Shown piece after piece: positions 28,581-29,553 of a stretch of DNA of 64,000 bases. The stretch comes from Gracilinanus agilis. Lineage: Eukaryota. The stretch is taken from assembly GCF_016433145.1 (NCBI RefSeq), contig NC_058131.1, positions 528,021,569-528,085,568 of the forward strand, given 5' to 3'. Each line of letters begins with the position of its first letter. Within the stretch, counting starts at the first letter, position 1. The notes below the pieces were generated by a model. It ran no database searches and was not told the origin of the DNA. It worked only from the letters and a program-made list of their open reading frames with translations. Position numbers and translations under genes: made by a program.

Positions 28581-29553
28581 GAGCTGCATCTTTTTTGTTT
28601 GTTTGTTTCTGCATCGAGGTATATTAATGCACAGCTGGCTGCCTGTACAGCAGGAAACGAATTGATTTGCTAATCCATATTGCCCCATGAAAGAAAATAC
28701 ATAAGATTATAGTACTCCCACCCCAATGGGAAGGAAGCTTGGATCTGGTTCCTGAGTGCTTTGTGACTCCTGAAGGATTCTGGGATCAGTAGTTTTTCTC
28801 TCTAGCTCCGTCCTCAGGGACGCTTCCATCTTTGGAAGTTGACTGTAGAATATGATAGACCTTGTAGAGTTGGTCAAGGAGTCCTTTTTTCTCATTGTCT
28901 GGAAGGAAACTGGACTTGGCAGCATTGATATTCAGTCTTATAAACTCCATTTTTACCATGCGGTAATCTGTGTCAGTAGTAGCCTTGAAAATGAGGGGGT
29001 CACTTGCCTTGAGTGAATAGTTAACCTTATCTTTAAATTGTTTGACTGCATGCTGGGTGTCTGGTTCCCAGGTTCCTGTGAGATAGCTTGACCAGGGGCA
29101 TACCTCAAAATTGCATGTTCTGCTTCAGCAACGTGCCACTTCCAGAGTGTGGCAACCACAGTCTATCCTCTCGGCAAGGAGAATAGCCGCTGCCTGCTGC
29201 ATAACCTTGGGTGGCCCTGCTTCTCCAGCACGAACCATGAACCGTCTGAGCAGTGGTACTTTTCGCAAGTCAAGTCACTTGGCCAAGGGTTCTGTAGTTC
29301 TGCTCTGTGAACCGAGCTAAACTAGCACTTCATGTCCATTTGGAAGAGCCATCAAGCCCGCGACTATCTTGTACTATAGCGAGAAGAGAGGATTCCCACT
29401 TCCTACCAACGCAGTGGAGGACCTCCAGGACGGGCTTGGCATGGACAAGCCCGGGAGCTTCCCTGGGTTCTTAGGCTTGTCAAACACTGCATTCTGTCTC
29501 TCTGTCGGTTCAGCTCGCTTTCTCCTGAGGGGTTCCGGTCTGGGCTGCGTTTT
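28581..29553 (-). pseudogene. ADA: Processed pseudogene of adenosine deaminase, internally inverted and deleted
   Basis: Intronless ADA-like peptides: AVFDKPK; LHVHL...IKPATILYYSEKRG...GMDKP (opposite strand); [21 protein letters not shown]...[13 protein letters not shown]. Stop at 28786-28788, A-rich tail near 28591-28608, degenerate 12-bp TSD (28581-28592 / 29542-29553). Confidence 0.93.

Follow-up and report, generated by a model that had tools for sequence, protein, structure and literature searches.

The ADA retrocopy in the window (the whole stretch of Gracilinanus agilis DNA that was analysed, 64,000 nt) is an ADA processed pseudogene by every test made, and, in the sequence as assembled, its segment at 29321–29470 is inverted and lies on the strand opposite to the rest of the copy. 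The inversion is accompanied by a missing middle, by inserts at the junction, and by a displaced ADA piece nearby. The locus works like a complex template-switch rearrangement, for which any named pathway is only a candidate. A single clustered burst of template switching on the ADA retrocopy, after a normal full-length insertion, is the reading that we consider probable, if only by a slight degree.

Structure of the ADA Retrocopy

The parent ADA gene was found by a search of the species' own genome on the same chromosome (C2:240.33–240.36 Mb), and its reconstruction from 80 kb of its own locus gave 12 exons and an open frame of 367 residues, with GT-AG introns plus one GC donor. Within the window, the retrocopy occupies 29553 to 28581 on the minus strand. 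Its pieces are continuous over the exon 2/3, 4/5, and 7–12 junctions of the 12-exon parent, the introns being absent, and a poly(A) tail, a target site duplication (TSD), and a TT/AAAA site are all present but decayed; judged by eye, about 2 substitutions and a 2-nt gap separate the two copies of the TSD. TT/AAAA is the L1 endonuclease motif, as described in the available part of PMC11702581. The 5′ end of the retrocopy corresponds to position −53 of the parent 5′ UTR, about 20 nt below the parental TTAAAA box, and is likely to lie near the parent's start site, which indicates that the retrocopy was likely full length originally.

The reading frame is disabled by a stop, frameshifts, and deletions, and 52 of the 376 conserved non-degenerate sites (13.8%) are changed in the retrocopy; the copy is dead, and no function of the locus is evident. 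The piece of exons 7–12 matches CDS 652–1330 of the parent (blastn, E 3e-160) and the ADA chains of the PDB (E 7.5e-36), its start matches CDS 626–657 at 22 of 32 positions, and it carries one stop, one frameshift, and several small deletions. The exon 1 piece has a 25-nt deletion directly after the ATG, with CAG at its flanks. In the minus-strand reading ERQNAVFDKP given in the earlier note, VFDKPK is indeed coding sequence, whereas ERQNA derives from the 5′ UTR, which was fused to the CDS by this deletion.

Table 1. Coordinates in the window of the ADA pieces, the junction inserts, and their putative sources.
Feature	Position	Strand	Remarks
3′-side TSD, degenerate	28581..28594	+	GAGCTGCATCTTTT vs GGGCTGCGTTTT at 29542–29553, by eye
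Decayed poly(A) tail	28591..28603	-	A-rich run from the end of the match to the parent's last exon
ADA exons 7–12, spliced, sense, CDS about 626–629 to 3′ UTR	28604..29268	-	
Junction insert Y′, 26 nt, repeat-like	29266..29291	+	Candidate source 31012–31036
Junction insert X′, 27–34 nt	29292..29325	-	Inverted copy of 29830–29863; holds most of the apparent LARF
Inverted ADA segment, CDS 44/48–198 (exon 1 end, exon 2, most of exon 3), spliced	29317..29470	+	
ADA exon 1, sense, −53 of 5′ UTR to CDS 47	29471..29545	-	
5′-side TSD (29542–29553) and adjoining AA	29542..29555	+	Minus strand reads TT/AAAA
Source X of X′	29830..29863	+	Edge of CpG island
Left part of interrupted repeat, candidate source Y	31012..31039	+	
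Displaced ADA piece C, CDS 359–471, spliced exon 4/5	31040..31169	+	blastn E 3.7e-13, nhmmer E 6e-15
Right part of interrupted repeat	31170..31216	+	

The Inverted Segment and Its Junctions

In the match to the parent gene, the inverted segment lies on the strand opposite to the remainder of the copy. It matches CDS 44–204 of the parent mRNA with 81% identity (blastn, E 4e-38) and spans the spliced exon 2/3 junction, and every one of its best PDB matches is a chain of the adenosine deaminase type (E 2e-10), which bears out its assignment to ADA. Another gene as the origin of the plus-strand segment was rejected, as its genome matches are only itself and exon 3 of the parent ADA. The translations and the letters CTAA (29317–29320) and TTAG (29471–29474) had been given correctly, and the placement of one breakpoint at the exon 1/2 junction agrees with the parent gene, in which exon 1 ends at CDS 48; the inversion ends at CDS 44–48, where the sense exon 1 also stops (47). 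The layout is thus sense-inverted-sense, with 75 nt of sense exon 1 between the inverted segment and the 5′ TSD.

The inversion had also been described as clean and as exact apart from one deletion, with the minus strand resuming at the residues LARF, and this part of the description did not hold. After the inverted piece, which extends to CDS 198, ADA restarts only at CDS 626–629, and the about 420 nt of CDS between them are absent from the retrocopy, a part being displaced. The 29 nt from 29320 fit the flank at 24 of 29 positions and ADA at 11 of 29. The 12 nt of LARF match the parent and the flank copy equally (8/12 each), and the 17 nt that follow match the flank at 16/17 and ADA at 3/17. 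As for the source, X′ matches 29830–29863 at 29 of 34 positions (E 1e-4 within the window), the 29-mer at 29290–29318 matches X at 24/29, a value reached by none of 300 shuffled 29-mers (the highest being 21), and X was picked at all three switch penalties. The LARF reading is therefore likely a coincidence of the flank copy, judging from these matches, and a 4-residue "restored frame" can derive from flank DNA. A clean inversion restoring LARF is ruled out by the same 29-nt comparison and by the parental TTGG described below.

The residue at position 69 was considered in the same context. The parent reads R69, where 55 of 55 homologues have K, which indicates that R69 is derived. Of the 8 positions at which at least 4 of 5 Australian marsupials disagree with the parent, 6 have retained the outgroup residue in the retrocopy and none has the residue of the parent, so the ADA mRNA likely read K69 when it was copied. 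Three residues specific to the parent do recur in the retrocopy, at positions that are more variable. From these residues, the site is predicted to be empty in Australian marsupials. That the mRNA already read R69 is unlikely, though not strongly so, by our own estimate from the 3 shared against 6–8 unshared changes.

The insert Y′ is less clearly assigned. It matches 31012–31036 at 22 of 26 positions, and this source was chosen at one of three switch penalties; part of a SINE (30829–30850) was chosen at the other two. The sequences at 31012–31036 and 49413 tie for the top score in the window. The SINE (30738–30936), which we take to be of an opossum-type family, lies between the promoter and piece C. 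Since its 15-nt TSD (30723–30737 and 30937–30951) still matches at 15/15 positions, the SINE is likely younger and was ranked lower as a source. Y′ may thus have been copied from the repeat arm beside the insertion site of piece C, to go by a match that is not unique. Alternatively, ADA CDS 198–208 could account for the first 11 nt of Y′ on the minus strand, with a match of 8/11 to the extant parent and of 9–11/11 with Ala-Lys codon pairs.

The 4-bp inverted microhomology proposed in the earlier note is absent from the extant parent, which has CTAA at CDS 44–47 and TTGG, not TTAG, at CDS 199–202. At the exon 1 junction, the perfect microhomology in the extant parent is 2 nt, or 6/7 with one bulge, as an imperfect inverted match (AGCCTAA / AGCC-AA) at the two breakpoints. 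A microhomology of 2 nt is reached by 16% of random breakpoints and therefore carries little weight; the other junctions have 1–3 nt as judged by eye. In the preferred reading, the CTAA at 29317–29320 is the end of exon 1 copied a second time, and the event itself likely produced the 4-bp inverted repeat. Alternatively, codon 67 of the ancestral ADA may have been TTA, which would have given a pre-existing 4-bp repeat.

The Displaced Piece and the Neighboring Genes

Piece C lies about 1.5 kb from the retrocopy in a 3.7-Gb genome and originates within the CDS interval that is deleted from the retrocopy. Its orientation is opposite to that of the retrocopy, it includes a 17-nt C-rich insertion, and its only other genome match is exon 5 of the parent (E 1.9e-9). 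At positions 136 and 137 it retains F and L, as in the outgroup. Its divergence is similar to that of the other pieces, with 6/55 conserved non-degenerate sites changed in piece C, 31/231 in the 3′ part, and 15/77 in the inverted part (inverted against 3′ part, p = 0.20). Piece C splits an old repeat, presumably MIR-like, which is rejoined when the piece is removed, and 21 of the 26 repeat matches cross the joint. Neither a poly(A) tail nor a TSD was seen at piece C, and a TT/AAAA motif was not seen at its site by eye. Queries with parent exons 4 and 6 matched only the parent in the genome, and nhmmer over the window returned no ADA piece beyond the known ones, a search that short diverged pieces could escape.

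The RPAP1 exons lie at 40117–55800 on the plus strand, and a gene with Ig/FN3 domains, which we take to be TYRO3 by synteny, lies at 2738–7271 on the minus strand, facing away from RPAP1. A CpG island at 29800–30200, about 280 bp from the 5′ end of the retrocopy, is likely the RPAP1 promoter, and piece C would sit in an early RPAP1 intron. Source X overlaps a ACTAYRNNNCCCR motif at 29857, presumably the ZNF143/THAP11 motif. Divergent transcription from the promoter into the retrocopy is possible.

Mechanism of the Rearrangement

A stretch of about 60 nt contains X′, Y′, and the deletion joint, and piece C, which derives from the deleted interval, sits only 1.5 kb away; this suggests that the pieces arose together. 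In the favoured reading, the L1 machinery would have inserted a full-length ADA cDNA, and a later stalled fork or break would have been repaired by a polymerase jumping among templates within about 2 kb. The jumps would have used the 1–3 nt of microhomology, in a process of the FoSTeS/MMBIR or polymerase-theta type. Along the minus strand, the path would lead from the repeat to the inverted exon 4/5 piece, back to the repeat, through the promoter, and to exon 1; from there, it would pass through the inverted exons 3–2, the promoter copy X′, and the repeat copy Y′ to exon 7 onward. Selection would have preserved the intervening promoter.

Switching after insertion is favoured because the insert has canonical features at either end (TSD, TT/AAAA, and poly(A), with the 5′ end at −53), because the inverted segment abuts exon 1 as in a flip on the spot, its end at CDS 44–48 facing the sense end at 47, and because the templates are far from the insertion site, at 277–310 bp (X) and about 1.5 kb (Y). 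The insert X′ and piece C are both inverted, as switches to the opposite strand would give. Against this reading, at least six switches are needed, and there is no overlap among the inverted piece, piece C, and the 3′ part, a pattern that several primers on a single mRNA would give as well. The latter arrangement would arise if the structure was made during L1-driven integration, with several DNA ends primed on one ADA mRNA: the poly-T end would give exons 12–7, the break at 31170 exons 5–4, and the top-strand end exons 3–2, with jumps onto nearby genomic DNA before end joining. Besides the lack of overlap, each piece appears oriented as a first-strand product of one or the other strand, twin priming with switching, templated insertions, and extra cDNA pieces have already been reported in the available parts of the L1 literature, and the X′–X divergence (3/27 to 5/34) is close to the 13.8% of the retrocopy. 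However, the sense exon 1 at the 5′ TSD would require a separate second-strand step, the templates lie far beyond 15 bp of the site, the piece C site is without a TT/AAAA motif visible by eye, and the event would be about half the insert's age if X is neutral. Formation during integration is the main rival reading, possible but rather doubtful. Its more specific form is unlikely in our judgement: that one ADA mRNA was copied from three DNA ends, one of them at a second break 1.5 kb away, and that a single germline L1 event in this way spread one transcript over two sites flanking a live promoter, with flank copies stitched in.

A series of independent events, in which a micro-inversion, clean or with a templated insert, was followed by an unrelated deletion and the capture of piece C nearby, would be in keeping with the other 3–25-nt deletions at the locus and with the imperfect inverted match at the parent breakpoints, and the inversion would be balanced if the first 11 nt of Y′ are CDS 198–208. 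The deletion joint lies 11–26 nt from X′, however, which is unlikely for independent events (about 1–2%, a rough estimate), and the strictly clean version is contradicted by the flank match and the parental TTGG, so that we consider serial origin improbable. An assembly artefact might be suspected in an assembly fragmented into 60,714 contigs, but it is very improbable indeed. All the pieces, including piece C, are about 11–20% diverged and keep ancestral residues, which indicates that they are not reads of the parent; they are single-copy apart from the parent, and X′ is not identical to X. In addition, the contigs of one run, possibly the assembly's own source, hold 0.96 of 97 sampled 31-mers of 28900–29900, where false junctions would cost roughly 15% of the 31-mers by our own estimate. 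With respect to the interpretation in the earlier note, an ADA retrocopy that is not a product of simple twin priming, with template switching as a likely cause, is retained, whereas a clean two-junction flip at a pre-existing repeat is not.

The divergence of the duplicated pieces was used to compare formation at insertion with a uniformly later event, and the likelihood ratio was 0.22–2.43 over 8 settings, a range that favours neither. The event is old, with 5% lower bounds of 0.18–0.43 of the retrocopy's age, and an old event fits formation at insertion; it looks about half the insert's age if X evolved neutrally. The dating rests on single residues because the long retrocopy branch is not placed by the protein tree.

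Comparison with Known Rearrangements

The component mechanisms are known, and the combination is unusual. The published data compared here are those in the available portions of the cited papers, which already document L1-made copies with a sense-inverted-sense structure or with templated insertions. Inversion was found in 9 of 42 somatic processed pseudogenes in PMC3996531 and in 20 of 235 processed pseudogenes in PMC11702581. The 5′ inversion made by L1 twin priming resembles the present locus in its inverted cDNA, TSD, poly(A), loss at the internal junction, and freedom from large duplication. However, the inverted part abuts the 5′ TSD in twin priming, whereas sense exon 1 intervenes here, and twin priming leaves one internal junction, whereas here there are several, with about 420 nt lost, a flank-derived insert, and a piece outside the TSDs. 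The median twin-priming deletion is 14.5 bp (10.1101/2024.08.27.596794).

Among about 3,600 somatic L1 insertions, the same study gives 20 + 3 cases of twin priming with switching and 22 templated insertions, whose templates are shorter than 250 bp and typically located no more than 15 bp from the site. In cell models, PMC11702581 describes pseudogene insertions made up of three pieces, additional pieces of cDNA, and locally templated DNA in three insertions. As far as these texts extend, these cases, including those made by ORF2p, share with the ADA locus short genomic templates and several cDNA pieces, and their extra internal inversion may correspond to its sense-inverted-sense layout. The length of the templates fits the present case, whereas the distance (277–310 bp and about 1.5 kb against 15 bp) does not. 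A cDNA piece at a second site 1.5 kb away, as seen here, does not appear in the available portions of either paper. Those cases are somatic or from cell culture, whereas the ADA locus is an old germline fossil.

Microhomology and templated insertions are given as the signature of replicative complex insertions in the accessible part of PMC5120786, and non-canonical mobile-element insertions may arise at integration or via later structural variants according to that of PMC12350158. The ADA locus shares with FoSTeS/MMBIR complex insertions and with short switches the clustered junctions, the templated insertions, and a deletion coupled to an insertion elsewhere, and its microhomology of 1–3 nt, though of a length that chance may give, would be of the same kind. 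A nearby templated insertion at a junction, as expected of FoSTeS, MMBIR, or polymerase theta, is provided by X′, and Y′ is suggestive. With at least six junctions in 2 kb, the scale is far below that of the array-detected clinical insertions and above that of the great-ape short-range template switches, whose median and maximum lengths in the available text of PMC7954356 are 12 and 128 nt. The microinversions in the portion of PMC8755829 that was available also flip a short segment in place, but they are precise, 17–33 nt long, and bounded by perfect or near-perfect inverted repeats, whereas the flip in ADA is about 150 nt long, has 2 nt of perfect parental homology, and carries an insert. 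A precise flip adds and loses nothing; here, the X′ insert and the deletion are present. A search by title and the start of the abstract, with most subscription journals outside its range, returned no paper on this ADA locus.

As a single dead locus, the retrocopy has small biological weight. Its value is that of a readable record of germline rearrangement, in which the order of the parent mRNA lets each junction be traced. If the structure was formed at insertion, L1 multi-priming, which is known in cell models and in tumours, would extend to a germline event at two sites, and other retrocopies would be predicted to have their missing middles nearby.

Additional Observations

The genome has another spliced ADA-like copy, which is more diverged (about 70–78% identity); it lies on a 12.7-kb contig (C17046:6664–7546) and is interrupted by an insertion of about 490 nt. 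It consists of the 3′ part only and is therefore of no use for the ancestral codons at the breakpoints. The GC donor of the parent belongs to the last intron, intron 11 (C2:240354439–240354441), and at this junction the retrocopy is longer by 7 nt, perhaps through a later insertion or because of an older splice site. Several deletions of 13–25 nt, one of them flanked by CAG, occur in the retrocopy at 28600–29545, and a 7-nt tandem duplication is found at 29229–29242. The window is also CpG-rich at 10001–12000, near the Ig/FN3 gene.
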